Assembly: GCA_964489425.1 (NCBI GenBank)
Contig: CAZAYP010000004.1
Location: 24,956 to 88,955, forward strand
DNA: 64,000 nucleotides
Source of the DNA: an uncultured Verrucomicrobiota bacterium
GTDB lineage: Bacteria > Verrucomicrobiota > Kiritimatiellia > RZYC01 > CAZAYP01
Reading direction: 5' to 3'
This document shows, piece by piece, positions 18,466 through 57,690 of the stretch. Position 1 is the stretch's first letter. Each line of letters starts with the position of its first letter. The notes beneath the pieces are model-generated. The model did not search any database. It saw nothing but the letters and a program-made list of their open reading frames with translations, and was not told the origin of the DNA. A program made the position numbers and the translations under genes.

Positions 18466-18857
18466 TCGATAGCAGCGTTTTAATCGACATCGAGAGATCC
18501 GGCGCGGATATATCCAAGTACATTCGGGGCCACGAAGAAGAAGATACGTTTCTCTCCGTTGTTTCCGCCAGTGAGTTGCTCCATGGAGTACACCGGGCAA
18601 CAGATGCCAAAACCAAAGCGAAGCGGCTGGCTTTCGTCGAGGGCGTGCTGGCGGCCATTCCCGTCCTCGCGATTGATTTGGCTACCGCGCGATCTCACGC
18701 GCGGTTGTGGGCCGCACTGGCCAGGCAAGGCAAGATGATCGGCGTTCACGATTCATGGTTGGCCGCGACTTGCATTGCGCATGGGCTGCGGCTCGCCACG
18801 AGCAACCTCCGAGAGTTCAAGCGAGTGCCAGGCCTGGACCTGGAGCAGTGGCAGTAG
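18453..18857 (+). CDS. vapC: Type II toxin, PIN-domain ribonuclease (VapC-like)
   Basis: 134 aa. N-terminal ILIDSSVLID (first acidic residue), conserved later acidic positions, about 130 aa length, 13-nt overlap with the antitoxin gene. Confidence 0.75.
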   Translation: MGILIDSSVLIDIERSGADISKYIRGHEEEDTFLSVVSASELLHGVHRATDAKTKAKRLAFVEGVLAAIPVLAIDLATARSHARLWAALARQGKMIGVHDSWLAATCIAHGLRLATSNLREFKRVPGLDLEQWQ

Positions 18858-36500: not shown

Positions 36501-38247
36501 TGGTTGGATTAAACACCAGGCTGGCGGCAATCTCGGAAGGCATCACGGTCAGGGTCGCCGCCGCGCTCCAGTCGCTGGTGATGCTGTTGGCATCGATGGT
36601 CCGCGCCCGGTAATCCACCGTGGCGGGCCACACGTTGGTCAGCGCCGACCCGGTCCCAGCCACGCTTGTCCACCCACTGCCCGTGTTCTGTTGCCATTGG
36701 TAGGTCACGGGCAAGGTAGCATTCGACACCACCGCGCTCGCCACGCTGGACTGGCTCTGCGTCACGACCGACGGGCTGAACGCCACAGTTACCTCGGGTT
36801 GCCGAACGGTCAAGAACGCCATGGTCCAGGCGCTCGTCGCATTGAAACTGTCCGTTACCCGCACACGGTATTCCAAGTTGGAATACCAGGCATAGGTGGT
36901 CACCGCCGACGTCATGCTCGCCAAGCGCCACGTCCCCTCCCCGCCCCAGCGGTATTCATAGCGGTAGCGATACGGCGCCGTCCCGTTGGTGGGCACCGCG
37001 GTCATTGTGCTGGCCACCCCGCGCACCATGTTGCTGGGATTGAACGTCAGGGTCGCAGCGATCTCAGACGGCATCACCGTAAGCGTTGCCGCCGCGCTCC
37101 AGTCGCTCGTCACGCTGTTGGCGTCAATACTGCGCGCGCGTACGTCCACCGTGGATGCCCATGCGCTCGTGACGGCCGAGCCGCTGCCGGCTACCGTGGT
37201 CCATCCGCTGCCCGTATTCTGCTGCCACTGGAAGGCCACGGGCAAGGTGGCGTTGGAAACGGTCGCGCTGACCACGCTGAACTGGCTTTGGGTCACAACC
37301 TCCGGGCTGACCGCCACGGCCACCCCGGGTTGGCTCACTCTCAGGAACGCCGCTACCCACTGGCTGGTGGCCCCAAAAGTGTCGGTCACGCGCACCCGGT
37401 ATTCCAGATTAGACCACCAGGGATACGTCTTCACCGCCGTGGTAAAGCCCGCCGTGGTCCAGGTCCCGGTGCCATTCCATCGGTACGCATAACTGTACGT
37501 ATACGGCGGGGTTCCATTGGTCGCCACCGTGGTCAGCGAACTGGCCACCCCCCGCACCACGTTGCTCGGGATGAACTCCAGGGTCGCCGCGATCTCCGTG
37601 GGCAGCACGGTCAGGGTCGCCGCGGTGCTCCAACCGCTGGTCACGCTGTTCGCATCCACGCTGCGCGCACGCACATTCACCGTGACCGGCCACACGTTGG
37701 TGATATCCGACCCGCTCCCGACCACATTGGTCCACCCGACCGACGGGTTCGTCGTTGTGTTCTGTTGCCACTGGTAGGTCACCGGCAAGGTCACGTTCGT
37801 GGCCAGGGCGCTTGCCACGCTGGACTGGCCCTGCGTCACCACCGACGGGCTGAGCGTGACCGCCGCCCCCGGCTGGCGGACAATCAGGGTTGCCGCAGCG
37901 CTCCAGACGCTGGTCGCGCGGGCGCTGTCCACCACCCGCGCCCGGTATTGCCGGCTGGCTGGCCAGGCAAAGATATTGGTGGGACTGGTCATGCCGGAGG
38001 CGCCCCAGTTGGTTGCACCGGCGAGACGCGTCTGGTACTGGTACGTGTACGGAGCGGCGCCTCCGGACGGCACGGCAGTCAGCACCGTATTTGAACCGTT
38101 GATGATGATCAACGGATTGAAGCTAAGGGACACCGTTACGGCGGACACGGTGGTAGCCCACAGCGCAGATCCACAACACAGCGCCATGAGCACGGAGATG
38201 CTCCGTTGTGGACGCTTATTCACTGTGGAAACAATGTGCTTTTTCAT
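30595..38247 (-). CDS. Giant secreted repetitive protein. About 13 tandem copies of a roughly 178-aa unit made of two alternating roughly 90-aa beta-rich modules; probable surface adhesin or fibre.
   Basis: 2550 aa from the ATG at 38247, which has an AAGGAG RBS 8 nt upstream. Signal peptide present. See findings for the repeat consensus and the non-repetitive C-terminal domain. Confidence 0.85.
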   Translation of the reverse strand: MKKHIVSTVNKRPQRSISVLMALCCGSALWATTVSAVTVSLSFNPLIIINGSNTVLTAVPSGGAAPYTYQYQTRLAGATNWGASGMTSPTNIFAWPASRQYRARVVDSARATSVWSAAATLIVRQPGAAVTLSPSVVTQGQSSVASALATNVTLPVTYQWQQNTTTNPSVGWTNVVGSGSDITNVWPVTVNVRARSVDANSVTSGWSTAATLTVLPTEIAATLEFIPSNVVRGVASSLTTVATNGTPPYTYSYAYRWNGTGTWTTAGFTTAVKTYPWWSNLEYRVRVTDTFGATSQWVAAFLRVSQPGVAVAVSPEVVTQSQFSVVSATVSNATLPVAFQWQQNTGSGWTTVAGSGSAVTSAWASTVDVRARSIDANSVTSDWSAAATLTVMPSEIAATLTFNPSNMVRGVASTMTAVPTNGTAPYRYRYEYRWGGEGTWRLASMTSAVTTYAWYSNLEYRVRVTDSFNATSAWTMAFLTVRQPEVTVAFSPSVVTQSQSSVASAVVSNATLPVTYQWQQNTGSGWTSVAGTGSALTNVWPATVDYRARTIDANSITSDWSAAATLTVMPSEIAASLVFNPTSIVRGASSTLTASPTNGTAPYRYSYEYRWGGEGSWIAASSTSAVNTLVVWSNMEYRVRVADSFNSTSAWATAFLAVRQPEVTVAFSPTVVTQSQYSVVSASVANVTAPVVYEWQQNTTTNPLSGWTAVPGIGVATYSNAWAATVQYRARSLDANRVTSDWSTAATLMVMPSEIAATLVASPTNMLRGSNSVSTATATNGTAPYTYVYQYRYGAGEWTAASWMSGRVQTNAWPSNVDLRVQVVDSFSSTSAWATAAVAVIQPAVTVSFSPAVVTQSQVSVVSAVVSNASLPVTYVWQENSGGGWSNVASSARQITNFWPNTVDYRARSVDANNVTSEWSAASTLTVMPSAIAVALVFSPTNTMRGSNSVSTATASSGMAPYSYSYAYRYGTDTWTSASWMSDRVHTNAWASNTELRVQVVDSFNATSAWTVASLGIRQPRVIVAFSPSVVTQSRVSVLSAVVSNTTAPLTYEWQKDEGGGWTNVVDSGRQITNFWPASVDYRARTVDGNSITSEWSAAATLTVMPSIISVALTRNPTNYVRGTSNSVSTASATNGMAPFNYSYEYRYEGGSWSPAAWMSGQVITNAWPSNVELRVQAVDSFNATSAWTAVGVQVRQPLVTVTFSPSIVTQSQVSVASAVVTNASLPVTYVWQENSGGGWSNVASSARQITNFWPNTVDYRARTIDANSITSEWSAVATLPVMPSVISVALAFSSTSTVRGVSCISTATASKGMAPYTYNYEYTYGTDTWTSAAGMNDRIHTNAWLSNVMLRVKVVDSFNATSAWTVASTVTRQPVLTVSFSPSVVTQSRVSVVSANATNTTAPVTYEWQEDSGGGWSNVASSARQITNFWPNTVDYRARTIDANSITSEWSAAATLTVMPSIISVALTRNPTNYIRGASNSVSTASATNGMAPYTYSYEYRYEGGSWTSAPWMSGQINTNAWTSNVELRVQAVDTFNATSAWTAVGVMVRQPLVTVSFSPSVVTQSRVSVVSAVLTNATLPATYEWQEDSGGGWSNVASSARQITNFWPNTVDYRARTIDANSITSEWSAAATLTVMPSIISVALTRNPTNYVRGTSNSVSTASATNGMAPYTYNYEYRHEGGEWATAAWMGGQINTNAWTSNVELRVQAVDTFNATSAWSSVGVMVRQPLVTVSFSPVAVTQCYSSVASAVVTNATLPVNYEWQQNYGPGWTDVSGSGSTITNIWPTNVACRARTIDANSVTSEWSAAANLTILPSAISATLTFNPLSVNRGSNCVLTATATNGMAPYTFSYEYRYDSEGWTEAAGMTAAVTTNAWASNVEYRVQVMDSFGASAWATAALVVRQPSVTVAFSPASVAQSRSSVVSATATNTIEPVTFEWQQNSGSGWANVADSGSAITNVWPATIQYRARSVDANSLTSGWSDAATLTVLPSEIAASLEFNPTTIIRGSNTVMTASATSGTAPYRYSYQYRWGGTGTWNSASITSAVTTYAWYSNLEYRVRAVDSFNATSAWAAATLTVLQPAVSVAFAPSVITQSQSSVVSALATNVTLPVTFQWQQNLTTNLLTGWTNVVGSGDALTNVWPATVQYRARSVDANTITSDWSAAATLTVMPSAISATLEFNPTTVIRGSNSVMTATATNGTAPYRYSYEYRWGGAGSWVVAGVTSPVTTYAWRSNLEYRVRVVDSFNATSAWAAATLTVLQPAVSLAFSPTQVVYGASSVLSATVSNTVEPYVFQFETRATGAVAWSSSPIVSAVTTNQWLSGVEYRARVIDANSVISEWSAVAVLSVLDPPVSVSLALNTNQVSFGNPVVVTATPVGGTGPYVFEYQSKDITVPGYDWVTEDGLTNAVVTNTWYNDVSIRVRVWDMATTNLSYWSPAVNLVVLAPESRLASPVITGLGIGARDSAALPKGQVGAEGTVGITVSWDGSAGKEFSIHVAEAVTGPWRVHPDAQYIQGQDGPMSLTILVDEAVPAMFFRVRERELVPAK
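30900..38100 (-). repeat. Intragenic tandem repeat array with a period of about 534 bp; central copies near-identical
   Basis: Alternative-frame ORFs 32852..33364, 33386..33898 and 33920..34429 (each offset by exactly 534 bp) encode almost identical peptides. Copies 34451.. and 35090.. are slightly diverged. Confidence 0.8.
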
Positions 38248-38591
38248 GCCCCGCTCCTTGCTAAACACCACGTTGCGTACTGCTTAAAATCGATATGCTG
38301 CTCAAGATGATCAATATACCCAAAAGGGAGGCTAAAGTTAAAATTGCAGGACCACTTTTTCATGAGATCAATACTACTCTTAAAATCGGCCAAAACTCAG
38401 CTAAATCAAGTAATTCGCCGATCTATAGACTAAAAGGTGCTTGTTCCCTGTATTTCTCACGACCAACCATCGCCATCAGCATAGCCGGCGGCCCGGGGGA
38501 AAAATGCCCCAAAGTCGTTATTTTGAAATATCTTATTTAACTGTTCAACAACAGGTTGTGGAACGGCATCTGCACTTTCGCTTCAACCGAC

Positions 38592-41529: not shown

Positions 41530-43293
41530 TTAACCGCCGGGATGCCATTCCTCCTGGGGTTTCTTCTCCACGCCCGTGCTCATGGCCTGATCAAAGGCGC
41601 CGGCCAGGTCGATGAGCGACTCGCCGGGCTGCAGGCCGGTAAGCATGTCTTCGCTGACCTTGAACTCTTCTTCCGTCATGGTGGCCGCCTTCATGCTCAG
41701 GCCGATCCGCCGCTCCACGGGATCGATTTTCACGATCCGGGCCTCGACGTCCTGGCCCACGGCGAGCTTATCGCGCACGTTCTGCACGCGCTCGTCGCTG
41801 ATCTGGCTGATGTGCACCAAGCCGTCCACGCCCTGTTCCAGTTCCACGAACGCGCCAAAGGACGTCAGCTTGTTGACCTTGCCCTTGACGACCTGGCCCA
41901 CATGGAACTTGGCCACAATGCCGGCCCAGGGATCCTGCTGCGCCTGCTTGAGGCCCAGGCTGATCCGCTGGTTCTGAGCATCCACTTCCAAGACCACGCA
42001 CTCGACCTCGTCGCTCTTCTTGAGGATCTCGGAGGGGTGATTGACCTTGGTGGTCCAGGACAGGTCGGAAATGTGGATCATGCCATCCACGCCTTCCTGC
42101 AGTTCCACGAACGCGCCATAGGACGTGAAGTTCCGCACGCGGCCCTTGATCCGCGAGCCAATGGGGTAATGGTCCGCCACCAGGCTCCAGGGATTGACCT
42201 CGGTCTGCCGGATGCCGAGGGAGATTTTGCGCTCTTCCTCGTTGATGTTGAGCACCACGGCGTCGATGGTTTCGCCCACGGTCAGCACATCCGAGGCCTT
42301 GGCAATCCGCTTGGTCCAGGAAATCTCGGAGACATGCACCAGGCCTTCCACGCCTTCCTCGATCTCCACGAAGGCGCCGTACGGCATCAGGTTCACCACC
42401 CGGCCATGCACGCGGCTGCCAATGGGATACTTCTCGGAGATGTTCTCCCAGGGATTGCTGGACTTCTGCTTCAGGCCCAGCGAAATGCGCTCTTTTTCAA
42501 GGTTCACATCGAGGATGACCACGTCGAGCTCCTGGCCGACGCTGACCATCTCGGACGGATGATTGATCCGGCCCCAGCTCATATCGGTGATATGCAGCAG
42601 GCCGTCCATGCCGTTCAAGTCGATGAACGCGCCAAAGTCGGTGATGTTCTTCACGTAGCCGTGACGAATCTGGCCGACCTGGATTTCGGTTAGCAGGGCT
42701 TTCTTCTGCTCGCGGCGCTGGTCTTCCAGCATCTCGCGGCGCGACAACACGATGTTTTTGCGCTCTTTGTTGATCTTGAGGATCTTGAATTGCAGCTTGG
42801 TGTTCAGGAAGTCATCGATGTTCTTGACCGGGACGACGTCGAGCTGCGATCCGGGCAGGAACGCATCCACGCCGACATCCACGATCAGGCCGCCTTTGAC
42901 CTTCATTTTGACCAGGCCTTCGATCACGCCGCCCTCGGTGAACTGGCTGAGGACGTTATCCCAATTGCGTTGTTCCTCGGCCTTGACCTTGCTGAGGATG
43001 ACCATGCCTTCGTCATCTTCCAGTTTTTCGAGGAGGATTTCGACGACATCGCCGGGCTTGACCGACTCGATATCCTTGAATTCCTCGGCCGGAATCAGGC
43101 CTTCGGATTTGTAGCCAATATCTACCAGCACGGCAGCGGGCCGCACTTCCAATACCTTGCCCTGGATGATGGAACCCTCGTTGAAATCCTTGAGGGTGTT
43201 CTCATACATGGCGGCCATGGCAGCCTGTTCGTTGCTTTCGGTGACCGGCTTTTTCGCTTCGCCGCGCTCTTTCTTCTTCTTCTGTTGTTCCAT
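41530..43293 (-). CDS. rpsA: 30S ribosomal protein S1
   Basis: 587 aa with six S1 repeats (GxV....GaFV....g..GlvHiSe). Confidence 0.95.
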   Translation of the reverse strand: MEQQKKKKERGEAKKPVTESNEQAAMAAMYENTLKDFNEGSIIQGKVLEVRPAAVLVDIGYKSEGLIPAEEFKDIESVKPGDVVEILLEKLEDDEGMVILSKVKAEEQRNWDNVLSQFTEGGVIEGLVKMKVKGGLIVDVGVDAFLPGSQLDVVPVKNIDDFLNTKLQFKILKINKERKNIVLSRREMLEDQRREQKKALLTEIQVGQIRHGYVKNITDFGAFIDLNGMDGLLHITDMSWGRINHPSEMVSVGQELDVVILDVNLEKERISLGLKQKSSNPWENISEKYPIGSRVHGRVVNLMPYGAFVEIEEGVEGLVHVSEISWTKRIAKASDVLTVGETIDAVVLNINEEERKISLGIRQTEVNPWSLVADHYPIGSRIKGRVRNFTSYGAFVELQEGVDGMIHISDLSWTTKVNHPSEILKKSDEVECVVLEVDAQNQRISLGLKQAQQDPWAGIVAKFHVGQVVKGKVNKLTSFGAFVELEQGVDGLVHISQISDERVQNVRDKLAVGQDVEARIVKIDPVERRIGLSMKAATMTEEEFKVSEDMLTGLQPGESLIDLAGAFDQAMSTGVEKKPQEEWHPGG

Positions 43294-43548
43294 GATCTAT
43301 CTGCTATCGGTTACGGGCATTTTATTTCTTGGCCACCCAGGATGGGTCAGCCTTCCACCGGAAGCAGCCCCCTCGCTTCCGGTAAAAGGCCATACGTTTA
43401 GCAGAGCGACCCGGCGGTTACAATGACAATCCGCATTTTTTGCGTCTTTTTTGCATTTGGCTTGATTTCATCCGGCGAAACAACTAAGCGGCTATGCCGT
43501 AGGCGATTGATTTTAAAGAATCATGGCTTGGACCATGGGAGATACACG

Positions 43549-44769
43549 ATGAATTATTTCGTCCACGCGAGCTGGCTGCTGTTGGCCGGAGTTCTTTCCG
43601 CCGCCGGGGTCACCATTCAATACAACTATGACATGGCCGGCCGCCTGGTCGAAGCGCGCTATGACCAGCTGAAAACCATCAGCTACCAGTACGATGCCGC
43701 GGGCAACCTGCTGGAACGCCGGGTCGACACCCCAGCGACGAACTATTATACCATCACCACCTTGACCAACGGCCCCGGGACGATCGTGCCCGGCAACCCC
43801 CAGGTCATGGAGAATGCGGACCAGACCCTGGTTATGACCCCTGCGGCGGGCTACCGCGTGGAGGATGTGCTGGTCAATGGACAATCGGTGGGCATGGTGA
43901 CGTCGTACACGTTTTACGCGGTCGCCAGCAATCAAACCCTGGCCGCCTATTTCGGCGCCGAGCCCGTGGGGTGCAACTACCCACTGGAACCGTCGTCAGC
44001 CATCTTTGGCGCTGATGGCGGAACAGGAACCGTCACGCTGATGACCGGTGAATCGTGCGCCTGGGCGATCACGAATGCCAACCCCTGGATAGCCATCACG
44101 TCGGATAGCAGCGGCACCGGCCCAACCCATATCCGCTACCTGGTGGCCTCGAACAGCGCGGCGGAAAGCCGGACGGGGCTGGTCTACGTGGCCACGAACC
44201 GGTTCCAGCTATCCCAATCCGGCACCGCCCCGGTCCAGCCAGGGCAGGTATCCTGCGTGTTGTACCCGCCCGGCGCGCGCACCGATGGAGCCCTGTGGCG
44301 CATGACCACGGGCGTTGACACCAACTGGCAAGCCAGCGGGGCCGTGGTGTCCAACGTGGCGCCGGGCGTCACGGTTGTGGCGTTCAACAGCCCGGCCGGC
44401 TGGCAGGCGCCCGCGAACCAGTCGGTCACGGTGATAAGCGGCCAGCAGACCAACCTGGCGGCCACCTACACTTGCCAGGTTACGCTCGCCGCCCCCTCGG
44501 CCGAGTATGCTTACATCTCCGCCACCGGACAGGTGAGCGTCATCGCGGGCACCGAATGCGCGTGGACGGCCCAAGTGACGTCCGGCGACGATTGGATCAC
44601 CCTGCTGGGCGTGGGCGGCGGGAAAGTCAACTTTGCGATCACGGAAAACGCCGGCCTGGGCACCAGGATGGGCACGATTGCCGTGGAAGCCAACGTGTTC
44701 ACGGTGCGCCAGCGCGCGCAACGCGACGTGAACGTTGTTCCCTACAGCTTCCTGCTGCTCATGGATTGA
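43549..44769 (+). CDS. Secreted protein with N-terminal YD repeats, an InlB-type B-repeat-like module and BACON-like domains
   Basis: Start at MNYFVHASWLLLAG (signal). YNYDMAGRLVEARYD and YQYDAAGNLLERR are YD-repeat motifs. GCNYPLEPSSAIFGADGGTGTVTL...CAWAITNANPWIAIT matches the BACON pattern (C..W spacing). Confidence 0.5.
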   Translation: MNYFVHASWLLLAGVLSAAGVTIQYNYDMAGRLVEARYDQLKTISYQYDAAGNLLERRVDTPATNYYTITTLTNGPGTIVPGNPQVMENADQTLVMTPAAGYRVEDVLVNGQSVGMVTSYTFYAVASNQTLAAYFGAEPVGCNYPLEPSSAIFGADGGTGTVTLMTGESCAWAITNANPWIAITSDSSGTGPTHIRYLVASNSAAESRTGLVYVATNRFQLSQSGTAPVQPGQVSCVLYPPGARTDGALWRMTTGVDTNWQASGAVVSNVAPGVTVVAFNSPAGWQAPANQSVTVISGQQTNLAATYTCQVTLAAPSAEYAYISATGQVSVIAGTECAWTAQVTSGDDWITLLGVGGGKVNFAITENAGLGTRMGTIAVEANVFTVRQRAQRDVNVVPYSFLLLMD

Positions 44770-44817
44770 CGCCCCTTGGCCGGGGCGCCCGAACACCCGC
44801 GACCTTGGCGCGTTGAA

Positions 44818-46518
44818 TCAACCCGGCTCTTCGGGCCGGGTGGTATCGATGGCGTAGAGATAACGCTTGATCTTGGCCGTGGAGGTTTTCTCGAATTCCT
44901 CAAAGCGCACCTGGATGCGCCGTGGCCACTTGTAATCCGAGAGCTGCTTGCACTGGCGCTTCACCTCTTTGCGGACCAGATCTTCGATGTCGCGGTCGGC
45001 CAGCTTGAGGTGGTGCTGGCGGGCATGCTGATCAATGGCCTCCTGGTTGGGCACCACGATGACCCCGACCCGCTCCCCCACCCGTTCGCCCGGCGCACGG
45101 TACCCCAGCACCAGTGATTCGAGGATGAACGGGCTCTTGGACAGCTGGTATTCGACCTCCTCGGGATAAATATTCTTCCCCTCGCGGTTGACGATCAGGC
45201 TCTTGCAGCGGCCGCTGATGGTCACAAAGCCATCAGCGTCGATGGCGGCCAGGTCACCGGTATGCAGCCAGCCGTCACGGATGACCTCGGCGGTGGCGTC
45301 CGGATTGTTGTAATAGCCCAGCATGACGTTGGGACCGCGCACCAGCAACTCGCCCACCCCCAGCTCGTTGGGATTAGCAATTTTCAGCTCCACATCCGGC
45401 AGCGCCTTGCCCACCGCCCCCGGCTTGTTGAGTTCCATGGGGTTCAGGCACACCACGGGCGAGGCCTCGGTCAACCCATACCCTTCGCGGACCGGAATGC
45501 CGAATTTTTCCCACCCATGAATGATTGCCGGGTCGCACGGCGCGCCGCCGCTGACCATCAACCGCAGGCGGCCGCCCAATTTTTTTAGCAACCCGCGCCC
45601 CACGACGCGCGCGCCGCCGCACTTGACCAGCGCGAACGCCAGGGGCTTTTTCTTCAGCCCGGCCATGATCTTGTAATACATTTTTTCGAGCAGCAACGGC
45701 ACCACCATCATCACGCTGGGCTGGACCTCGGCCATGTTTTCGCCGATGGTTTTCAGGCTCTCCACCAGGGCAATCTCGGCGCCCACCCGCATGGGCACCA
45801 GCAGGGTCGAGGTGAACGCGAACGAGTGGTGCAGCGGCAGGATGAGCAGGAACCGGTCTTCCGCCGTGAGGATCGGCATGGCTTTCAGGGCGCTATCCAC
45901 GTTGGCGATAAAGTTGCCGTGCGAGATCATGGCACCCTTCTGGCGGCCCGTGGTCCCGGAGGTGTAGATCAGGGAGGCGATGTCATGGTCGGCCGGGGTG
46001 TGCCGGTCGTAGGCGCGGCCGGGCCGGTTGATGGCGGCAGCCTGGGCGGCCAGGGAGCTTTCATAATCAAAGTATTGGATGCGCCGGCGGCCGGCCACGG
46101 GCGCCGGAGCCTGCCCGCCGATCAGGAAAATGTACTCCAATTTCTTGAGCGGATCTTCGATGTAGCTCAGCAGCGGATAGCTGGCCACTCCGGCAAACAG
46201 GGCGCGGGCGCCGGAATCCGCGAGGATATGGGCCACCTCCTGCTCCTTGAGCTTGGCATCGATCGGCACGGCCACGGCGCCGAACGCGACCATGCCGTAA
46301 TAGATTTCGGGCCATTCCGGCGAATTTTCGCGGAACAGGGCCACGCGGTCGCCCGGCCGGACACCATGGGCGTGAAGCAACTCGGCCACCTGGGCGGCGC
46401 GATCCTGCAGTTCGCGGTAGGTGCGGGTAAGCCACGCACCCTGCGACTTGAACCGCAACGCGATTGACTCGCTCCGCCTGGCCACGGTTTCGGCCAGCGC
46501 CGTCTTGATGTTCATCAA
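44818..46518 (-). CDS. Long-chain-fatty-acid--CoA ligase (AMP-dependent synthetase/ligase)
   Basis: AMP-binding motif IYTSGTTGRQKG, core YGLTE, A8/A10 regions. 566 aa. Confidence 0.9.
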   Translation of the reverse strand: MMNIKTALAETVARRSESIALRFKSQGAWLTRTYRELQDRAAQVAELLHAHGVRPGDRVALFRENSPEWPEIYYGMVAFGAVAVPIDAKLKEQEVAHILADSGARALFAGVASYPLLSYIEDPLKKLEYIFLIGGQAPAPVAGRRRIQYFDYESSLAAQAAAINRPGRAYDRHTPADHDIASLIYTSGTTGRQKGAMISHGNFIANVDSALKAMPILTAEDRFLLILPLHHSFAFTSTLLVPMRVGAEIALVESLKTIGENMAEVQPSVMMVVPLLLEKMYYKIMAGLKKKPLAFALVKCGGARVVGRGLLKKLGGRLRLMVSGGAPCDPAIIHGWEKFGIPVREGYGLTEASPVVCLNPMELNKPGAVGKALPDVELKIANPNELGVGELLVRGPNVMLGYYNNPDATAEVIRDGWLHTGDLAAIDADGFVTISGRCKSLIVNREGKNIYPEEVEYQLSKSPFILESLVLGYRAPGERVGERVGVIVVPNQEAIDQHARQHHLKLADRDIEDLVRKEVKRQCKQLSDYKWPRRIQVRFEEFEKTSTAKIKRYLYAIDTTRPEEPG

Positions 46519-46667
46519 TCAGCTCCCAACAGTTCGGCGGCACCCGCCCGCCGGGTATTTACGAAACCCGTCTTTGAAGGTATTATTATTACTTGATGAT
46601 CAGAGATCAAGAGCAGGCTATGAGGGAGTCGTAATACGGCCATAAGCCGTGCACCAAGGATACGCCG

Positions 46668-48806
46668 ATGAACAAGCTATTTGCCGTGGCTATGGTTGTG
46701 TCGATGCTCGCCGCAGTTGCCGTTGCCGCGCCGCAACCTTTGCTGAAGTTTGAGGCTGATGACACCCTGGAAGAACTGCAATTCAAAATTGCCATGAACG
46801 GGTTTGACTTCGAGGTCGCCCACAACAAGATTTTCGACATGCCCGCGGATCAGAAAGCGCTGTTCCTGTCGCGCCGGGCGCCCAGCGTCCCGGCCGCGGA
46901 CACGGACCAGGCCTACGACATCGGCCCGCTGGCCGATTACCTGGGCCGCAAGATGCTGCCCACCGCGTTCTGCTGGACCAACGTCAGTGGGCACACGTAT
47001 ATCGGGCCGGTCCGTGACCAGGGCGGCTGCGGGTCATGCTACTCGTTCGGCGCCAACGCCGCGGCGGAAGGCACCTACAACTATGCCATGGGCTTGTACG
47101 ACGGGAACTGCGTGGATTTCTCCGAGTCCTTCATTATCTGGTGCCTGGGCAGCATCGCGCCCTACTCCAGCCACTTTTCCGGGTGCGACGGCGCGGACTA
47201 TGACTATGCCGAGCTGGACGCTCTCTGCGAAACCGGTGTGTGCTACGAGTCCAGCTTCCCTTACGTGGAAACCGATCCCGGCGCCTGCACCCACTGGGGC
47301 GATCCCAAGGTAAAAATGAGCGCCTGGTACCGGGTGCCCTGCGGCGACATCGAGGCCATCAAGACCGCCATCATGACCTACGGCGTGGTGGACGCCGCCG
47401 TCAACGTGGATTCCGGGTTTGAGGCGTATTCCAGCGGCATCTATAACAATACGGCAACCAACTGCGACGCGTCACCGTGTTATTACAAGCCCACCAACCA
47501 TGCCATTTCGCTGATCGGCTGGAACGATAATGGCGGTAACGGGTACTGGATCCTGCGCAACAGTTGGGGCGACACCTGGGGCGAAGACGGCTACATGCGC
47601 ATCAGCTACCGCGCGGCCGTGGTATCCTGCGAGGTGTGCTACTTCGTCTACACCCCCGCGACCACCCTGAACGCGCCCACCGGGCTGAGCGTCACGGCGG
47701 TCTCCGGCACCGGGTTCACCGCCAACTGGCACCAGGTGACCAACGCCACCGGGTACCAACTGGATGTGGCCACCAACAGCGCGTTCAGCGAGGGTGCGGG
47801 GGGCACCATCCTAACGGAAGACTTTGCCCTGTTTACACGTTCCAACAGCAGCACGGACGTCAGCGCCAGTCTTGATTCCTACACGCATACATCCGGGTGG
47901 ACTGGCGCCAAGATTTACGAAAACGTGGGCACGGCCAAGATGGGATCCTCATCGGCCCAGGGATATATCACCACCCCCACAGTCAACCTCTCGGCGCAGG
48001 GCGGGGCGGCCACGCTGCAGTTTGACTTGGGGAAATACGGTACGGATGCCAACCTGGTGCAGGTAATGCATGCTGCGGACGGCAGCACCTTCGTACAAGT
48101 TGGCGAGGATCTGACCCCTCCAGCGTCTATGGCGCAGCAAACGCTTGCGATCACGAACGGCACCGCGGCCTCCAAGGTGCGCGTTCAGGCCAAAGGCACT
48201 TCCAGCAACCGGTTCTACCTGGACAATTTCACGCTGAGCCAGGCAACCAGCGGCGACGCCTACGTGCCCGGATACCGCAGCCGCAGCGTCGGCGGCAGCG
48301 CCACGATCACTTGCGCGGTAACGGGCCTGACTTACCAAACCGCCTACTACTTCCGCGTGCGCGCCACCAACGTAACGCAGGTCAGTTCCAATTCCGTGGT
48401 CACCAATGCCACCACCAGCGCCAGCGGCACCATCCCCACGGATTGGACGGTCCACTACTTCGGCACTACCAACAACCCCTCGGCCGCGCCGACCAATGAT
48501 CCGGACCATGACGGCCTGCCGAATATCGACGAGTATGTCATGGACACGGATCCGACCAACCTCAGCGTGGCCACGCCCCATTTCCAAGTGGGCAGCGGGC
48601 CGGCGGCCAATGCCTACGACATCTCGTTCCTCGCCTCCACGGCCCGGTATTACACGATCCAATACCGGACCAACCTGGTCTGGGACGCCTGGCACGATCT
48701 GCTGGCCAACGTGCGCGGCACCAACAACACCGTCACCATGGTGGACACGAACTACCCGCGGGAACTGGAACGCTACTACCGCATCCGCATCCGCGCGGAC
48801 CCATAA
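46668..48806 (+). CDS. Secreted papain-family (C1A) cysteine peptidase with I29-like propeptide, FN3-like and C-terminal beta domains
   Basis: Signal peptide. Cathepsin-propeptide-like helix region. Catalytic Cys motif QGGCGSCYSFGA, His in NHAISLIGW, NSWG. Downstream GLSVTAVSGTGFTANWHQVTNATGYQLD is FN3-like. Confidence 0.85.
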   Translation: MNKLFAVAMVVSMLAAVAVAAPQPLLKFEADDTLEELQFKIAMNGFDFEVAHNKIFDMPADQKALFLSRRAPSVPAADTDQAYDIGPLADYLGRKMLPTAFCWTNVSGHTYIGPVRDQGGCGSCYSFGANAAAEGTYNYAMGLYDGNCVDFSESFIIWCLGSIAPYSSHFSGCDGADYDYAELDALCETGVCYESSFPYVETDPGACTHWGDPKVKMSAWYRVPCGDIEAIKTAIMTYGVVDAAVNVDSGFEAYSSGIYNNTATNCDASPCYYKPTNHAISLIGWNDNGGNGYWILRNSWGDTWGEDGYMRISYRAAVVSCEVCYFVYTPATTLNAPTGLSVTAVSGTGFTANWHQVTNATGYQLDVATNSAFSEGAGGTILTEDFALFTRSNSSTDVSASLDSYTHTSGWTGAKIYENVGTAKMGSSSAQGYITTPTVNLSAQGGAATLQFDLGKYGTDANLVQVMHAADGSTFVQVGEDLTPPASMAQQTLAITNGTAASKVRVQAKGTSSNRFYLDNFTLSQATSGDAYVPGYRSRSVGGSATITCAVTGLTYQTAYYFRVRATNVTQVSSNSVVTNATTSASGTIPTDWTVHYFGTTNNPSAAPTNDPDHDGLPNIDEYVMDTDPTNLSVATPHFQVGSGPAANAYDISFLASTARYYTIQYRTNLVWDAWHDLLANVRGTNNTVTMVDTNYPRELERYYRIRIRADP

Positions 48807-48947
48807 TCCTTCCGCCGCCGGCGGCAAAGCCCCTGCTGTCTGGCGGCTTTGGGTTCTGGGCCGTTATGCGCCCCAAATGCAACCAATGCCCTGAGATGTA
48901 GATGAATGTGGGGCCTGCGCTATTTGTCGCCAGATCGTTTTAGTGGA

Positions 48948-50084
48948 TCAGGGTAACGCAGTGCGTGCTATCCTAAAACCAATAAAGTTTTCAGAAAAGT
49001 ACGGCAGGGCGTAGTACTCGTCGTTGCGATCAGCGACACGGCAGTAAAACGCGCCCCTATTCCAATCACCGCCGCGGAGTGCGCGCCTGTCACCTGTTGT
49101 AGGTCCGTGGGGATCCGACCATGGCGAAATGCCATAGAAATCATCATCATGCCAATCCCAACACCATTCCCGCACATTTCCCGCCATGTCATACAGACCA
49201 TAGCCATAGGCTTCAAATGAGCCTACCGGACTTGTGTAGGGCACCTCACCAACTGAGTAGAGCGGGTGATAGCCTGAACTCAAATCATAGCTGTATGTTT
49301 CGCTATAACCCCTATAGTTCGCCTTTGCGTGGGCAATTTTGTTGGTAAAGTCGAGCCATGGAAATCGAGCTTCTGCCACACCGCCTCGGGCCGCCTTTTC
49401 CCATTCTGCCTCTGTCGGCATTCGGTAGCCGTTCGCCATCCAGTTGCAGTCGGGAATGCTATTCCCAGTCCGGTACACCCCGCCATTGGTAGTATAACAG
49501 GGAGACAATCCTTCTTTCTGACTGAGTGCGTTGCACCATTTTGCCGCATCATACCAGTTCACCATTTGAACTGGATGATTCGTCGATTTGCCTGCACCTT
49601 GATTAAACCAATATCCATTAGCCAATGCCCACATACGCACTTCATCCCACTTTGCTTTGGTCACCTCATATTTACCCAAGTAAAAAGGGCTAAGATAGTT
49701 CGTATGCCTAGGCCACTCGTTTGCATCTCCCTCTCCGAATGTGTCGCCCATCACAAACTCACCGGAGGGAATCAACACCATGCTTTCGGGTGATGGGATA
49801 GTATTAGAAATAGTCGCGACCACACGGTACAGCATAGGAACTGTGCAGGTGATCATGCCTCCACTGTATCCCGAAATATTGTCCAGATTTATGGCGGCTT
49901 CCATAAAGTTGGTCCACGGGCCCATTGGCATGCGGGCCCATTCGATGCGATACCCCCTTGCGTTCGATACGGTGTTGAAAACAATTTGCCCGGGTCGGTC
50001 GAAAGAACTGATAACCACGTCATCTGCTAGAGCAGCCAACGTGAGAGCCATAATCATCCACATCCGTTGCATTAAAGCCTTCAT
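48948..50084 (-). CDS. Secreted formylglycine-generating-enzyme (FGE/SUMF1) domain protein
   Basis: Signal peptide, then the FGE-sulfatase domain (MVLIPSGEFVMGD, HPVQMVNWYDAAKWC, RLPTEAEWEKAARGG, GNVREWCWDW, RGGDW). Low-GC gene. Confidence 0.85.
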   Translation of the reverse strand: MKALMQRMWMIMALTLAALADDVVISSFDRPGQIVFNTVSNARGYRIEWARMPMGPWTNFMEAAINLDNISGYSGGMITCTVPMLYRVVATISNTIPSPESMVLIPSGEFVMGDTFGEGDANEWPRHTNYLSPFYLGKYEVTKAKWDEVRMWALANGYWFNQGAGKSTNHPVQMVNWYDAAKWCNALSQKEGLSPCYTTNGGVYRTGNSIPDCNWMANGYRMPTEAEWEKAARGGVAEARFPWLDFTNKIAHAKANYRGYSETYSYDLSSGYHPLYSVGEVPYTSPVGSFEAYGYGLYDMAGNVREWCWDWHDDDFYGISPWSDPHGPTTGDRRALRGGDWNRGAFYCRVADRNDEYYALPYFSENFIGFRIARTALP

Positions 50085-50141
50085 AAAACCTTCTCAATCT
50101 TTCTTAAAATAGTCAGTGTAATATTACAGCACCGGTGGCAA

Positions 50142-50537
50142 TCAGTCCAGGTCGCGCAGTTGCAGGTCGCCTTCGTCCAGGCCCAGGTAGTGGCCCATCT
50201 CGTGGAGCAGCGTGGTGCGGACTTCCTCGCGGAACCGTTGGGGATCGCCCTCGGACTCGTCCCACAAGTTGCCGATGAACAGGATGATTTGTGCCGGCAA
50301 CGGGTCCAGGAGTTCCGCCCCATACTCCGCGCCCACGAACAGGCCCAGGGTGTCCGGCGCCACGCCATCGGCCACCAGGCCATCGGACGGCCAGATCTCG
50401 TGGGTGATGGGAATGCCTTCGATCTCGCGCCGGAATTCCGGGGGCAGTTGACGGAGCAGGCGCGTGCCTTCCTGTTCCGCCATGAGCAGGGGCTCGGCCC
50501 ACGGCGACCCCGGCCTGGTTATCCGCACCCGCGCCAT
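50142..50537 (-). CDS. Small zincin-like metallopeptidase-family protein (HExxH)
   Basis: 131 aa with HEMGHYLG (HExxH) and an acidic C-terminus. 1-bp gap from the upstream beta-propeller gene. Confidence 0.55.
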   Translation of the reverse strand: MARVRITRPGSPWAEPLLMAEQEGTRLLRQLPPEFRREIEGIPITHEIWPSDGLVADGVAPDTLGLFVGAEYGAELLDPLPAQIILFIGNLWDESEGDPQRFREEVRTTLLHEMGHYLGLDEGDLQLRDLD

Positions 50538-50538
50538 G

Positions 50539-53500
50539 CTATTCGCTGAGCAGCATCATCCAGGGGATGCCGCGCGGTTCGCCGGCGGCCTGGCGGATGG
50601 TGACCATCTGGTCCGCGACGGAAACCGTGCCAGTGCGGCCGTACAGGTCGGAATTGGCGGCCACGGCCAGGGATACCGTACCGGTCCCCTGCCCCGCGCC
50701 CAACCCTTGCACCGTAATCCAGGCGGCCGACGGCGTGCCGCAGTTCCAGTAACAGGCGGGACTGCCGGGCGTCACAGTGACCGCGGCCATTGCGCCGGTG
50801 CTGGGAACCATGAAATCCTGCGGCGCCACTTGATAGGAACAGGCCGTGTAGCGGCCGGTGACGACCGTGACCTGGCCCGAAACGACCAGCACGGACTGGG
50901 TCCCCGGCGCCATGTATCCGGGCAGGGTTTGGCGGAATCCGACCGTGTAGGTGCCGGCCGGCAAGCTATCGCGCACTTCGCCGTTGGTGAGGGCCGTGTA
51001 CACCCACGGATACACCGACCACGTGGTGACGGCCGCGATATTGGTTGGTTCCAGCCACGCCTGGATGGCGCCCACGCTGGAACCGGCGCCGTCCTGGACA
51101 GCGGTGAACACCTCGTTGGCCACGTACAGCAGGCCGGTGCGCGGCCCGGCGCCGGGCCAGTTGGGCGCCGCGAGGTACTGCACGGTGCCCGTGCCGATCC
51201 CGGTGGCATTGGTCATCACCGTCAGCCACGCGCCCAGGCCGGCGTCACGCGCGCTCCAGGCGCAACCCGCGGCCGCGCCCACCTCGAACGTGCCGTCGCC
51301 GCCCTCGAAGGGGATGGTCACCGCGAACGGGGCCAGGGAATACTGGCAACCGGCGAACCGCACATCCGCCGTGCTATTGGCGGTGATATTGCTCCACGAA
51401 AACACAAAGCGATCCCAACCAATGGCTGCCGGCACGGGTTGGCCATTGGCCAGCAGGCGATCGATGTAGTAGTTGGTTTCCGCAGTGATGACCCACGACA
51501 GGGTGCCGCCGTGCGTCACCGGCGTCAGGCCGGCCGGCGCGATGCTGCCATGCGCCCCGGCCTGCGCCAGGACAAAGTGCTGGGTGCTCACGCCCGAGTA
51601 GGCAAAAGCGTTGGACTTGACCGTCTCGCCCATGCTGGCGGAGAAGACCCGCACATCCCCGGTGCACGCGGAATAGGACCCGCCGGCCAGCACTTCGACC
51701 ATGCCCGCCCGCTGGGTAACAATCGTGGCCATGATGCTACACAACGTCACGTTGGTGATGTCCGTGCCATTGCCGAGGTTCAAGCCGCTCAGGATCACCG
51801 GCGTACCGCCCACCATGGGCGCAAAATCCGGGACCACCTGGTCCAACCGCCCCAGGCTGTGCACGACGCCCAGGCCATACGCGGCGGCCGGGCCCAACTT
51901 GAACAGGTCGCCGCCCACAAACTGGTTGTAGCCGTTGTCCTGGACCGCCCGGACTTCCCAATCCGTGGAATAGATCCAGCCACTGTCCAGCACGCCGGAG
52001 GACGTCTGGACGCGGCCGATGTTGGAGACCGCCACCCCGCCCACCGCGTAAAAACCGCCACCGATGTACACCACCGGGCCGCGCGGGAGAATGGCAGCGA
52101 CCGGTCCGTCCGGGCTGGGCGCCCAGTTGAGGTCCACGGCCCCGGTATTCAAGTCCAGGCGCAGCAGGTTGGTCGGTCCTGTGACCGGTTCAAAGTACCC
52201 GCCCAGGTACAGATGCCCTTCTCCGGCGGCCATGTCCATAAGCATGGGGAACACGTACCCCGCGCCGTTCGTCCAACTTGGATCCAGCACGCCAGTCTGC
52301 AGGTCCAGCCGCCCCACCATGTCGGCCAACCCGCCGCCAATCTCTGAAAATAAGCCCGCGGCATACAGGAATCCGTTGGTGACCACCAGGCTTTGCAGCA
52401 CACCATCGCAGCCGTTGGTCCACCCGGCGCGCGGGGCACCGGAATACCGGTCCACGCATCCAATGGCGGCGAACGCTGCCTGCCCGAGGTTGGTGAAGTC
52501 CCCGGCCACGTACAGGTTGGTCTGCCAAATCGCCAGATCCGCGATGCTCCCATCGGTATCGTTGGACCAAGCCGGGTCTACCGCGCCGTCCGGCAGGCGC
52601 ATCTTGGCCAGGCCGAACCGGGTCAGGTTGCCCGCCGCATAAAACTGCCCGCCGACAAACACATCGGTTCCTTCAGCCGCGAGGCAGGTCACCGGCCCGT
52701 TGACGCTGTTGCTCCACACCGTGTTCACGGTCCCGTCCTCTTCCAGCAGCGCCAGGTTATGTTGCCAGAAGCCATTGATGACATCAAACTCGCCGCCGGC
52801 GATCACTTGCCCGCCGGGCAGGGTCAGCAGGGTCGAAACCACTCCCCCGGCCATGGCGCGGGCAGTATATCCGGGAACCACGCCGCCCGTGGCCCCCACG
52901 ACCAGGCCGCACCCATACCGCGGCCGATCGCCGCCCAGCAGGAAGTTGCCCGCCATCCAGACATTGCTGCCCTGCATTTCCATATCGTAGGGCGTGCCGT
53001 AGATGTTCCACCCACCCTCGCTCAACCTGGCCCCGGTCTGCAGATCGAAGCGCACCAGGTGGCCATCCGCGGCATACAACGCCTGGTCATCCGCGGCGAG
53101 CGCGTAAGGGGCATTGAAGTTATTGGTCCAGGCCGGATCCGCCGCGCCATTGGCCGGCAGCAAGCGCGCCAGGCCCTGGCGCGGCGCGCCACCCACGGTG
53201 GCGAACTCGCCGCCGATGAACAGGCCGGCACTGGTAGGCAGGATGACATTGACGCCACCATCCGCGCCATTGGTCCAGTTGTTGTCCAAGGCCCCCGTGG
53301 CGCCATCAAAACAGGCGATAAACTGCCGCAGCGACCCGTTCACGTTGGTGAACCGGCCGCCCGCGTACAGCCGGCCGTTGTCCCAGGCCAGCGCACGGAC
53401 CGACCCACCGGAAATGCGATTGGTCCAGGCCGGATCGGCTGCTCCGGTGGCCAGGCTGAATCGCGCGAGGCTGGCGAAGGTCATGCCATTGGTCTGCTCA

Positions 53501-53970
53501 AAGGTGCCACCCACGTACAGGTTGGTACCATCCGTGGCCAGGGCATTCACCTCGCCATCGATCAGGTTGGTCCAGGCCGGGGTCAACTGGCCGGTGGTGA
53601 TGTCCAGCCGCCCCAGGCCAACACAAGGCTGGCCGCCCACGGCATGGAAGCTGCCGCCGATATACAGGTGGGTCCCGGCCACCAGGGCCGCCATGACCGA
53701 TCCGTCGCACCCCTGGGTCCAGGCCGTGTCCAGCGACCCGTCCGGGTTGAGCCGCGCCAGGTTTTCGCGCGGCTGGCCGTTGACCAGGTTGAACCAGCCG
53801 CCAATCACCCGGTCGCCGTCCGGGAGCAGTGCGCCGGCCCACACCACGCTGGGCCGCTCCAGGGTCAAGCCGCTGGCGTAGCCAGCCCAGGCCTGGTCCC
53901 AGCCGCCCCACGGGACCATAAGGAACAAGGCCAGAATCGTCGCGATGCATACATGATGGGATCTCTGCAT
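50539..53970 (-). CDS. Large secreted beta-propeller-repeat protein with IPT/TIG-like, InlB-B-repeat-like and BACON-like C-terminal domains
   Basis: Signal peptide after MQRSHHV. More than 15 repeats of the pattern ...G..Y.GG.F..V.G..R..LARL...G..D..W... Late region GCQYSLAPFAV...CAWSA matches BACON. Confidence 0.7.
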   Translation of the reverse strand: MQRSHHVCIATILALFLMVPWGGWDQAWAGYASGLTLERPSVVWAGALLPDGDRVIGGWFNLVNGQPRENLARLNPDGSLDTAWTQGCDGSVMAALVAGTHLYIGGSFHAVGGQPCVGLGRLDITTGQLTPAWTNLIDGEVNALATDGTNLYVGGTFEQTNGMTFASLARFSLATGAADPAWTNRISGGSVRALAWDNGRLYAGGRFTNVNGSLRQFIACFDGATGALDNNWTNGADGGVNVILPTSAGLFIGGEFATVGGAPRQGLARLLPANGAADPAWTNNFNAPYALAADDQALYAADGHLVRFDLQTGARLSEGGWNIYGTPYDMEMQGSNVWMAGNFLLGGDRPRYGCGLVVGATGGVVPGYTARAMAGGVVSTLLTLPGGQVIAGGEFDVINGFWQHNLALLEEDGTVNTVWSNSVNGPVTCLAAEGTDVFVGGQFYAAGNLTRFGLAKMRLPDGAVDPAWSNDTDGSIADLAIWQTNLYVAGDFTNLGQAAFAAIGCVDRYSGAPRAGWTNGCDGVLQSLVVTNGFLYAAGLFSEIGGGLADMVGRLDLQTGVLDPSWTNGAGYVFPMLMDMAAGEGHLYLGGYFEPVTGPTNLLRLDLNTGAVDLNWAPSPDGPVAAILPRGPVVYIGGGFYAVGGVAVSNIGRVQTSSGVLDSGWIYSTDWEVRAVQDNGYNQFVGGDLFKLGPAAAYGLGVVHSLGRLDQVVPDFAPMVGGTPVILSGLNLGNGTDITNVTLCSIMATIVTQRAGMVEVLAGGSYSACTGDVRVFSASMGETVKSNAFAYSGVSTQHFVLAQAGAHGSIAPAGLTPVTHGGTLSWVITAETNYYIDRLLANGQPVPAAIGWDRFVFSWSNITANSTADVRFAGCQYSLAPFAVTIPFEGGDGTFEVGAAAGCAWSARDAGLGAWLTVMTNATGIGTGTVQYLAAPNWPGAGPRTGLLYVANEVFTAVQDGAGSSVGAIQAWLEPTNIAAVTTWSVYPWVYTALTNGEVRDSLPAGTYTVGFRQTLPGYMAPGTQSVLVVSGQVTVVTGRYTACSYQVAPQDFMVPSTGAMAAVTVTPGSPACYWNCGTPSAAWITVQGLGAGQGTGTVSLAVAANSDLYGRTGTVSVADQMVTIRQAAGEPRGIPWMMLLSE

Positions 53971-54146
53971 GGTTTTCTCCTGTCGGTTAGACGATGGCTC
54001 GCACATGGATTCGGCAAAAAATGGCAGCAATAAAAGTTCCGGGCCGGATTGATGTTGGTGTCTTGTAACATCGGATGATAGTATTCCCTCTGTTTGAATA
54101 AGTACAGGCTGAGGCGGGCACGAATCAATCTAAATATTGAGGGATC

Positions 54147-56895: not shown

Positions 56896-57690
56896 ATGGC
56901 GATCACGGAAGCTTTGAGCGCGGCGACGGCCACCTCCCCCGAGGCCAACGGGGTCGAAGTCGGCAAGCCCGGCGGCGAACTGGGCAAGAACGAATTCCTC
57001 AACCTGCTGGTGGCCCAGATGCAGCATCAGGACCCCCTGGACCCGGTAGACAACAAGGAAATGATCGCCCAGTTGGCGCAGTTCAGCGCCTTGGAACAGA
57101 TGCAGAACCTTAACACCCAGACGGAGAAGCTGCGTCAATCGCAAGCATTCAACCTCTACGCCGATATGTTCGGCAACTTCACGGCCTTGGTGCTCAAGAG
57201 CGGCGAGGTCGTGGAAGGCACCCCGGCGGGCATCAACTGGCGCGACGGCGAGGCGTATATCCAGATGGATTCAGCCACCGAAGTACCCCTCTCCGAGGTG
57301 GTCAAATTTGCCATGGTGACCCAGGAAGAGTTGGCCGCGGCCATCGCGGCCCAAAACCCGGCTTCGCGCGAGAGCGGCACCGGGGCGGAGTCAGCCCCGG
57401 CGGCCAAAACGGCGGCCGTGGCCAGCCGTGGCGGCTTTGGCAACCCGGCCGAGCAGAACGCCGCGCAACGCATGGGCGGCTCGATCGTGCGCTCCTCGGA
57501 CGGCCACGCGGTGGCCGGCAACCTGGGCGGCACCATCAACGGCCAGCATCGCAACGACCTGATATTGAACTGGAACTTCGTGGAATACACGGAGAACGGC
57601 CAACTCCACAAGATTCCCATCACGCGCGACCTGAATGTGGTCATGGACAACCGCAACGCCCAGGCGGCCGTGGACCGGTCCCGGCACTGA
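56896..57690 (+). CDS. flgD: Flagellar hook capping/assembly protein FlgD-like
   Basis: N-terminal LGKNEFLNLLVAQMQHQDPLDPVDNKEMIAQLAQFSALEQMQNLN is the conserved FlgD N-domain; a beta domain follows. No other flagellar genes in the window. Confidence 0.65.
   Translation: MAITEALSAATATSPEANGVEVGKPGGELGKNEFLNLLVAQMQHQDPLDPVDNKEMIAQLAQFSALEQMQNLNTQTEKLRQSQAFNLYADMFGNFTALVLKSGEVVEGTPAGINWRDGEAYIQMDSATEVPLSEVVKFAMVTQEELAAAIAAQNPASRESGTGAESAPAAKTAAVASRGGFGNPAEQNAAQRMGGSIVRSSDGHAVAGNLGGTINGQHRNDLILNWNFVEYTENGQLHKIPITRDLNVVMDNRNAQAAVDRSRH

Follow-up and report, generated by a model that had tools for sequence, protein, structure and literature searches.

In Treponema denticola, TvpA serves a diversity-generating retroelement (DGR) as its variable protein and adopts a C-type lectin fold of the formylglycine-generating enzyme (FGE) type without FGE activity (PMC5758913). 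Variable regions of the CLec1 type located inside an FGE-sulfatase domain form the largest class of DGR targets, and some of these targets carry N-terminal extensions of unknown function (PMC5758913). TvpA is represented by seven scattered paralogous targets, and for non-phage DGRs remote targets have been documented at distances above 100 kb from the reverse transcriptase (RT) (PMC5758913). A gene of this kind is found at positions 48948-50084, on the minus strand, in a stretch of 64,000 nucleotides from an uncultured Verrucomicrobiota bacterium (contig CAZAYP010000004.1 of assembly GCA_964489425.1); the whole stretch is referred to as the window. The gene encodes a protein of 378 amino acids that is probably a horizontally acquired, secreted, non-enzymatic ligand-binding protein with a C-type lectin fold, belonging to the family of TvpA and other DGR variable proteins.

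The protein begins with a signal peptide (residues 1-20, cleavage ALA|DD) in which no lipobox cysteine can be read from the translation. It continues with a conserved N-terminal domain at about residues 21-95, the fold of which was not recognised, and the remainder is a match to the FGE-sulfatase family PF03781 (residues 100-374, E 2.7e-49). The catalytic Cu(I) cysteines of FGE are Cys272 and Cys277 in S. coelicolor and Cys336 and Cys341 in humans. HMMER alignments to the FGE of S. coelicolor (2q17/6muj) and of T. curvata (6s07) place Arg343 of the window protein at the first Cu(I)-binding cysteine, and only the second catalytic position holds a cysteine (C348). When 28 homologues of this architecture are aligned, both positions rank among the most variable columns, with entropies of 3.05 bits (column 343) and 2.41 bits (column 348), and cysteine is present at column 348 in 8/28 homologues. 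The initial annotation described the product as an FGE/SUMF1-domain protein and called for a check of the cysteine pair; the enzymatic reading is not borne out by these alignments. Judged by its residues, the protein has lost the catalytic pair and is no FGE.

The best sequence match among PDB entries is TvpA (2y3c, E 1.2e-29), and on sequence grounds the gene belongs to a TvpA-like, non-catalytic branch of PF03781 which includes DGR variable proteins. TvpA and the window protein are both stand-alone FGE-fold lectin domains that are exported (as predicted for the window protein), they have the C-terminal scaffold RGGxW...A..C....R...GFR in common, and a functional FGE cysteine pair is missing from both. 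They differ in that TvpA, a lipoprotein, has its cognate template repeat (TR) and RT in the genome, whereas the window protein has no lipobox and neither a TR nor an RT within 64 kb. The window protein also has the additional conserved N-terminal domain of about 75 residues, and its gene is a compositionally foreign islet.

DGR targeting was found directly in relatives. Eighty metagenomic and 80 viral homologue loci were compared with themselves in search of near-repeats with the mismatches at adenines of one copy. A first adenine-bias scan with stringent blastn scoring gave no pairs, and relaxed scoring revealed them. In four loci the homologous gene has, precisely at its 3' end, such pairs of TR and variable region (VR). 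The mismatches fall at TR adenines in 23/27 cases in L091 (a viral contig; 53% identity to the window protein), in 20/21 in L017 (48%) and in 19/20 in L013 (45%), the latter two being from metagenomes. The more distant locus L038 (39%) has two targets, with 21/21 and 17/18 mismatches at TR adenines. The L013 protein consists of a signal peptide, an N-terminal domain and a lectin domain, as does the window protein. RTs accompany several of these genes: the one adjacent in L017 has the motifs IGNLTSQ and YMDD, L091 has both RT and TR, and both of these RTs carry the DGR hallmarks [IL]GxxxSQ and YMDD, while the adjacent RT in L038 is 45% identical to that of L017. L070 is a fifth DGR locus, with the RT at the contig edge. 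Relatives that are 45-53% identical to the window protein over the lectin domain (L013, L017 and L091) are proven DGR targets. At such loci the RT copies the nearby TR, located 0.4-1.8 kb downstream in these three cassettes, with adenines substituted at random, and the cDNA replaces the variable region (mutagenic retrohoming). When the variable segment was left out, a neighbour-joining tree placed DGR-verified members on several sides of the clade of the window protein.

The family shows further variation in organisation. Proteins of about 640 amino acids with two tandem lectin domains are common (e.g. P0002, P0009 and P0017), four paralogues (P0022, P0023, P0036 and P0065) are found on one NCBI contig of 184 kb, and one viral contig carries a tandem array of three adjacent copies (L093, 5124-8846). 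In L087 (11080-11320) the homologue P0067 (GCA_964610105.1) ends in GTTCTGTCCGGCCCCCAGGTCAG, a sequence that resembles an initiation of mutagenic homing (IMH) element and is shared with verified DGR targets, followed by a 12-bp inverted repeat (GTGTCCGTTCAG ... CTGAACGGACAC). No TR was found within 10 kb in L087, so this homologue is a candidate remote DGR target, which suggests that remote targeting occurs in the family.

The C-terminal part of the window protein retains the framework that these retroelements leave constant. The templates of the relatives encode R-G-G-S-W-NNN-A-NN-C-R-V-A-N-R-NNNN-P-x-N-x-NNN-I-G-F-R, and the window protein reads R-G-G-D-W-NRG-A-FY-C-R-V-A-D-R-NDEY(YAL)-P-YFSENF-I-G-F-R. 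The constant (non-Asn) positions of the L091 template are kept with three exceptions, and those kept include the tail GFR[IV]AR..[VL]P, which reads GFRVARSSVP in L091 and GFRIARTALP in the window protein and thus is of the same type. Most of the Asn-coded positions differ from the template, together with S340D and, after the conserved proline, Ser to Tyr and Thr to Ser; the segment also has a three-residue insertion relative to the template. The conserved scaffold residues are R337, G338, G339, W341, A345, R349, A351, R353, P361, G369, F370 and R371. In the alignment of 28 homologues, columns with an entropy of 2.5-3.5 bits are interspersed among such invariant residues, and it is at these variable columns that the templates in L013, L017, L038 and L091 have their Asn (AAC) codons. 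Residues 337-371 are predicted to be the ligand-binding tip of the lectin fold.

Several observations weigh against counting the window gene among the DGR-type variable lectins. No DGR was found in the window: low-stringency blastn of the gene against the 64 kb returned only the gene itself and no template repeat, tblastn with the RT of L017 gave no match, and none of the 42 window genes scanned has an RVT or Avd domain. A DGR lies within 8-10 kb in only 5/160 homologue loci, so the family is not uniformly linked to DGRs, and none was found in the six accessible loci nearest to the clade of the window protein. The 20 variable codons of the window gene comprise nine NNC, seven NNT and four purine-ending codons (AGG, GAG, CTG and GAA), whereas verified VRs are almost purely NNC at these codons and those of L013, L017 and L091 essentially all so. 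Compared with the L091 template, mismatches occur at 18/33 TR adenines and at 26/81 other positions (p = 0.022), which is a weak bias, and the bias is not significant with the other two templates. The fold does not decide the matter either. An AlphaFold model of the protein has a pLDDT (predicted local distance difference test) of 70, which is only moderate confidence. In a Foldseek search with this model TvpA (2y3c) came first with E 2.2e-15 and the S. coelicolor FGE (2q17, 30% identity) had an equal E-value, with other FGE structures close behind and a Foldseek probability of 1.0 to FGE structures. Fold alone therefore does not separate TvpA from true FGEs, and the decision between them rests on the residues and on the repeat evidence.

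The adenine-bias self-comparison that was used for L013, L017, L038 and L091 gave no TR for the window gene in 64 kb, and the only YxDD match in the window lacks RT context. The GC-rich end ...CCCCCAGGTCAG common to L013, L017 and L087 is absent at the window gene; an IMH can be judged only against its own TR. The 3' tail resembles that of L091 at the protein level, with 21/33 matching nucleotides. The codon mix is compatible either with drift of the copy in the absence of retrohoming or with a template of different codon composition, and the window copy is more likely an orphan with fixed specificity than a remote target.

The composition of the gene is foreign to its surroundings. It has 50.7% GC compared with a mean of 65.1% for the window and constitutes the lowest 1.1-kb stretch of the 64 kb. 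A two-boundary change-point likelihood fit delimits, with sharp edges, an islet with 49.6% GC versus 64.9% (log-likelihood gain 45), comprising the open reading frame (ORF), 73 bp downstream and 45 bp upstream. Its upstream boundary (about 50129) falls inside the 57-bp spacer in front of the gene, 12 bp past the stop codon of the preceding zincin gene. GC content at third codon positions (GC3) is 0.536, compared with 0.836 +/- 0.040 in the 41 other genes (z = -7.5), and Karlin codon bias is 0.656 compared with 0.231 +/- 0.066 (z = +6.4). The strong anomaly in composition claimed by the initial annotation thus stands, the gene being an outlier in windowed GC, GC3 and codon bias alike. Low GC as a trait of the family was considered and ruled out, because the homologous genes match the GC content of their own flanks: the difference is within 0.05 in 19/21 loci and at most 0.078, compared with 0.145 in the window. 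Horizontal acquisition, which had also been proposed, is supported both by the composition and by this agreement between relatives and their flanks, and transfer from a donor with about 50% GC is the best explanation of the islet.

The islet carries no recognised mark of how it was inserted. The flanks have no convincing direct or inverted repeats, only short matches at chance level. No tRNA and no Rfam family were found in the 64-kb window, and Pfam and gene scans of the neighbouring genes gave no integrase or transposase near the islet. Genome contigs were scanned with the zincin as query for a syntenic locus without the islet; two distant loci were found, of which the nearer (L002) is not syntenic, and the searched collections hold no close relative for a comparison of the same site. 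Two homologues elsewhere also have lower GC than their neighbours. In L004 (4592-5737) GC3 is 0.67 compared with 0.83-0.88, and in L026 (9420-10277) GC is 50.7% compared with 58.5%. This hints that the family has repeatedly been transferred as a single gene.

Other explanations of the gene and of the islet differ in how well they account for these observations. A genuine FGE, maturing sulfatases encoded elsewhere in the genome, would explain the strong PF03781 match, the bacterial FGE structures that score nearly as high as TvpA and the sulfatases found within 10 kb of some homologues in the genomes of relatives. However, true FGEs (SUMF1 and bacterial; PDB 2Q17, 6MUJ, 6S07 and 1Y1E) share the Pfam domain and the overall fold with the window protein at 23-30% identity, while Arg343 replaces the first Cu(I) cysteine, the second is not conserved in the window family and the region of the active site is the hypervariable part of the family, hypermutated in close relatives exactly at the would-be FGE site. 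Contigs with several paralogues, and tandem arrays, are also seen among the homologues, unlike what is expected of a housekeeping maturase. The window contains no sulfatase, as the initial annotation had stated, in that none was found among the 42 genes scanned and motifs of the CxPxR type occur only in non-coding frames. Taken together this makes an FGE extremely improbable. It is also improbable that the gene encodes a secretion or gliding component like PorK/GldK or GldJ, or a periplasmic maturation factor like PvdO. Like the window protein these are exported FGE-fold proteins, non-catalytic or of different function; GldK (100 bits) and PvdO (82.7 bits) are the best NCBIfam matches, structures of PorK and PvdO appear in the fold search, and the neighbouring peptidase is weakly similar to a nuclease family dependent on the type IX secretion system (T9SS). 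The curated cut-offs are 350 bits for GldK and 500 bits for PvdO, though, and the equivalog models GldK, PvdO, EgtB, SenA and GldJ all score several-fold under theirs (3-6 fold for the PorK/GldK, GldJ and PvdO branches, which also differ in length and architecture). Partner genes (PorL/M/N, gliding or pyoverdine genes) are absent from the window and from the homologue contexts, and the signal peptide lacks the lipobox cysteine.

Within the reading as a TvpA-like lectin, the gene might be an active remote target of a DGR elsewhere in the genome, with the C-terminal 105 bp rewritten in trans. The documented targets more than 100 kb from an RT and the seven scattered TvpA paralogues (PMC5758913) provide a precedent, and L087, with its IMH-like CCCCCAGGTCAG end and downstream hairpin without a TR within 10 kb, suggests another within the family. 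The scaffold is almost completely retained by the window protein, 16/20 of whose variable codons are NNY compared with 55% in the gene as a whole. Such targeting is nevertheless unlikely considering that GAG, GAA and AGG codons stand at variable positions, that the 3' tail is not conserved in nucleotides with L171 or L091, that neither TR nor RT is present within the 64-kb window, and that the recipient would have to supply a matching TR for a gene only recently transferred. An error in assembly or binning, by which a foreign fragment was joined into a high-GC contig, would concern the islet rather than the protein. The assembly is metagenome-derived and lacks a close relative with which synteny could be compared, but Logan contig L001 (run SRR12261227) is identical to window positions 42585-53013 at 10,429/10,429 positions, both junctions included. 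A chimeric join is unlikely because this independent assembly is identical across both junctions, and such a join is not normally expected to resume host sequence after 1.25 kb. Moreover, the islet corresponds to exactly one ORF in the same orientation as the genes before it, with a clean junction just behind one stop codon and the other about 70 bp from the end of the convergent gene. An artefact is hardly credible on this evidence. The preferred interpretation is still that of a transferred, TvpA-like lectin gene, and it is from this that its surroundings are considered below (Table 1).

Table 1. Coordinates of the lectin gene, the islet and the adjacent features in the window
Feature	Position	Strand	Basis
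DUF5122/delta-60 beta-propeller protein, 1143 aa, with TIG and BACON	50539..53970	-	ORF, Pfam, NCBIfam delta_60_rpt
Zincin_1 (PF06262) protein, 131 aa, HEMGH motif, without signal peptide	50142..50537	-	ORF, Pfam E 1.2e-12
Spacer upstream of FGE-fold gene, 57 bp, AT-rich	50085..50141	-	sequence
FGE-fold C-type-lectin protein, TvpA-like, 378 aa	48948..50084	-	ORF, Pfam, NCBIfam, PDB sequence match
Segment equivalent to variable region, residues 337-371, RGGDWNRGAFYCRVADRNDEYYALPYFSENFIGFR	48972..49076	-	family alignment, template repeats of relatives
Low-GC islet, 1,255 bp, 49.6% GC, one gene	48875..50129		change-point fit
Papain-family (C1) peptidase, 712 aa, secreted, C-terminal extension, convergent	46668..48806	+	ORF, Pfam, NCBIfam

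The initial annotation grouped the gene with the two upstream genes in a secreted three-gene operon. The coordinates of the three minus-strand genes and the gaps of 1 bp and 57 bp between them are confirmed, and Pfam supports the propeller, the TIG/IPT and BACON domains and the HEMGH zincin, whereas the domain resembling an InlB-B repeat was not detected. The propeller protein and the PF03781 protein have signal peptides. The zincin has no hydrophobic stretch at the N-terminus of its translation and hence no signal peptide, so that the description of the operon as secreted was overstated. The ORF of the propeller protein mechanically reaches a TTG at 54030 (50539-54030), and the ATG at 53970 is the start in both the NCBI and the Logan gene call. 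The protein begins with the hydrophobic signal sequence MQRSHHVCIATILALFLMVPWGGWDQAWA, as read from the translation, and its Pfam domains are DUF5122/delta-60 repeats, a propeller of the Rax2 type, TIG (731-799) and BACON (1067-1148). No match above 38% identity was found in the search for propeller homologues. The zincin gene begins 1 bp past the propeller stop codon. Its nearest relative, in the Verrucomicrobiota metagenome-assembled genome L002, is 51% identical, and the alignment begins at residue 11, in favour of the long start for the zincin.

A functional unit of the three genes is not supported. Neither a zincin nor a propeller relative was found in the first 80 homologue loci or in the annotated contexts of the closest homologues, so a conserved operon is not supported, and the L002 zincin adjoins a DtxR-type repressor and two-component genes with no propeller or FGE gene beside it. 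A conserved partner gene was considered and rejected on the heterogeneity of the contexts. The homologues lie beside RHS/DUF6531 and immunity-like genes in L004, integrases, ParE and IS66 in L006, an integrase in L089, a restriction-modification system with HicA in L171 and housekeeping genes in L087. The gene thus is a stand-alone cargo gene, whose homologues are found in unrelated and often mobile contexts, and the three window genes are neighbours by insertion and do not form a conserved unit. In L172 (2-4572) a sensor histidine kinase of 1001 amino acids and a response regulator flank a homologue, which lies 18 bp upstream of the response regulator and may be a variable lectin that forms part of a signalling operon.

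Co-transcription, on the other hand, may occur by read-through. The 57-bp spacer holds a purine-rich GAGAAGG five bases ahead of the ATG of the FGE-fold gene and no promoter-like site was found in it. No terminator-like site was found on the minus strand between or just after the three genes. Near the islet such sites number only two: on the plus strand, a weak hairpin at 48833-48847 that follows the convergent peptidase gene, and a second at 49317-49334, which lies within the FGE-fold gene on the opposite strand. Read-through from the propeller and zincin genes is plausible because the genes are on the same strand with short gaps, no terminator-like site on that strand and no promoter-like site in the spacer.

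The genes around the locus are otherwise ordinary chromosomal ones (parB, pckG, ffh, smc, nifU/nifS, purH, tyrS, rpsA and hisS), and the closest relatives of several window proteins carry Verrucomicrobiota or Kiritimatiellia labels. The host lineage is poorly sampled in the collections that were searched. The convergent C1 peptidase has a host-like composition (GC3 0.82), and its C-terminal half gives weak matches to a T9SS-dependent surface nuclease family and to the pilus-like family of Amuc_1099. A secreted protein with RHS repeats and a BACON domain (43423-44769, plus strand) is a second exported neighbour beside this peptidase, and the region abounds in large exported proteins. Further away, a giant ORF of 2558 amino acids (30595-38271, minus strand) has a signal peptide, a host-like GC3 of 0.88 and many tandem repeats of about 100 residues with motifs such as TYQWQQNT... 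and ...RARSVDANSVTS.WS. Its sole Pfam match is a faint one to DUF6878, and the product is probably a large repetitive surface protein. A low-GC patch (38.0-39.0 kb, 53.5%) overlaps the intergenic region upstream of this ORF. In codon usage a PIN-domain gene (18453-18857, plus strand; GC3 0.70, codon bias 0.50) ranks second among the window genes for deviation, and its composition fits a mobile toxin-antitoxin module. A gene for FlgD, the flagellar hook capping protein, is located at 56896-57690 (plus strand), isolated among unrelated window genes.

The history and function suggested for the FGE-fold gene can be outlined as follows. A donor with about 50% GC would have passed it on horizontally as an islet of one gene, which would have inserted 12 bp past the stop codon of the resident zincin gene, where read-through from the propeller and zincin genes may provide its transcription. 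The signal peptide would direct export of the protein by the Sec pathway. Its last 45 residues or so may then serve as a fixed scaffold (R-G-G-x-W-xxx-A-xx-C-R-V-A-x-R ... P ... I-G-F-R) on which about 17 variable side chains are exposed for binding.

The protein belongs to an already known family of variable lectins, and no new mechanism or system is revealed by it. As an example of transfer the locus is clean, with one foreign gene placed at the 3' end of two resident genes. The comparison also corrects a likely mis-annotation that is routine for the large PF03781 expansions in Verrucomicrobiota-like and related genomes. In this clade the catalytic residues are missing, and it is kin to hypermutated binding proteins. 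A question thereby raised is whether DGR-type variable lectins still work, or diversify, after transfer without their retroelement. A tentative and rather doubtful proposal is that the FGE-fold variable-lectin genes of this clade move between genomes of the PVC (Planctomycetes, Verrucomicrobia, Chlamydiae) type as promoterless single-gene cassettes, without RT and template, the copy in the window being either a "frozen" specificity captured by transfer or a remote target that a resident DGR diversifies in trans. If this is true, binding specificities generated by DGRs would be shared horizontally as stand-alone genes.

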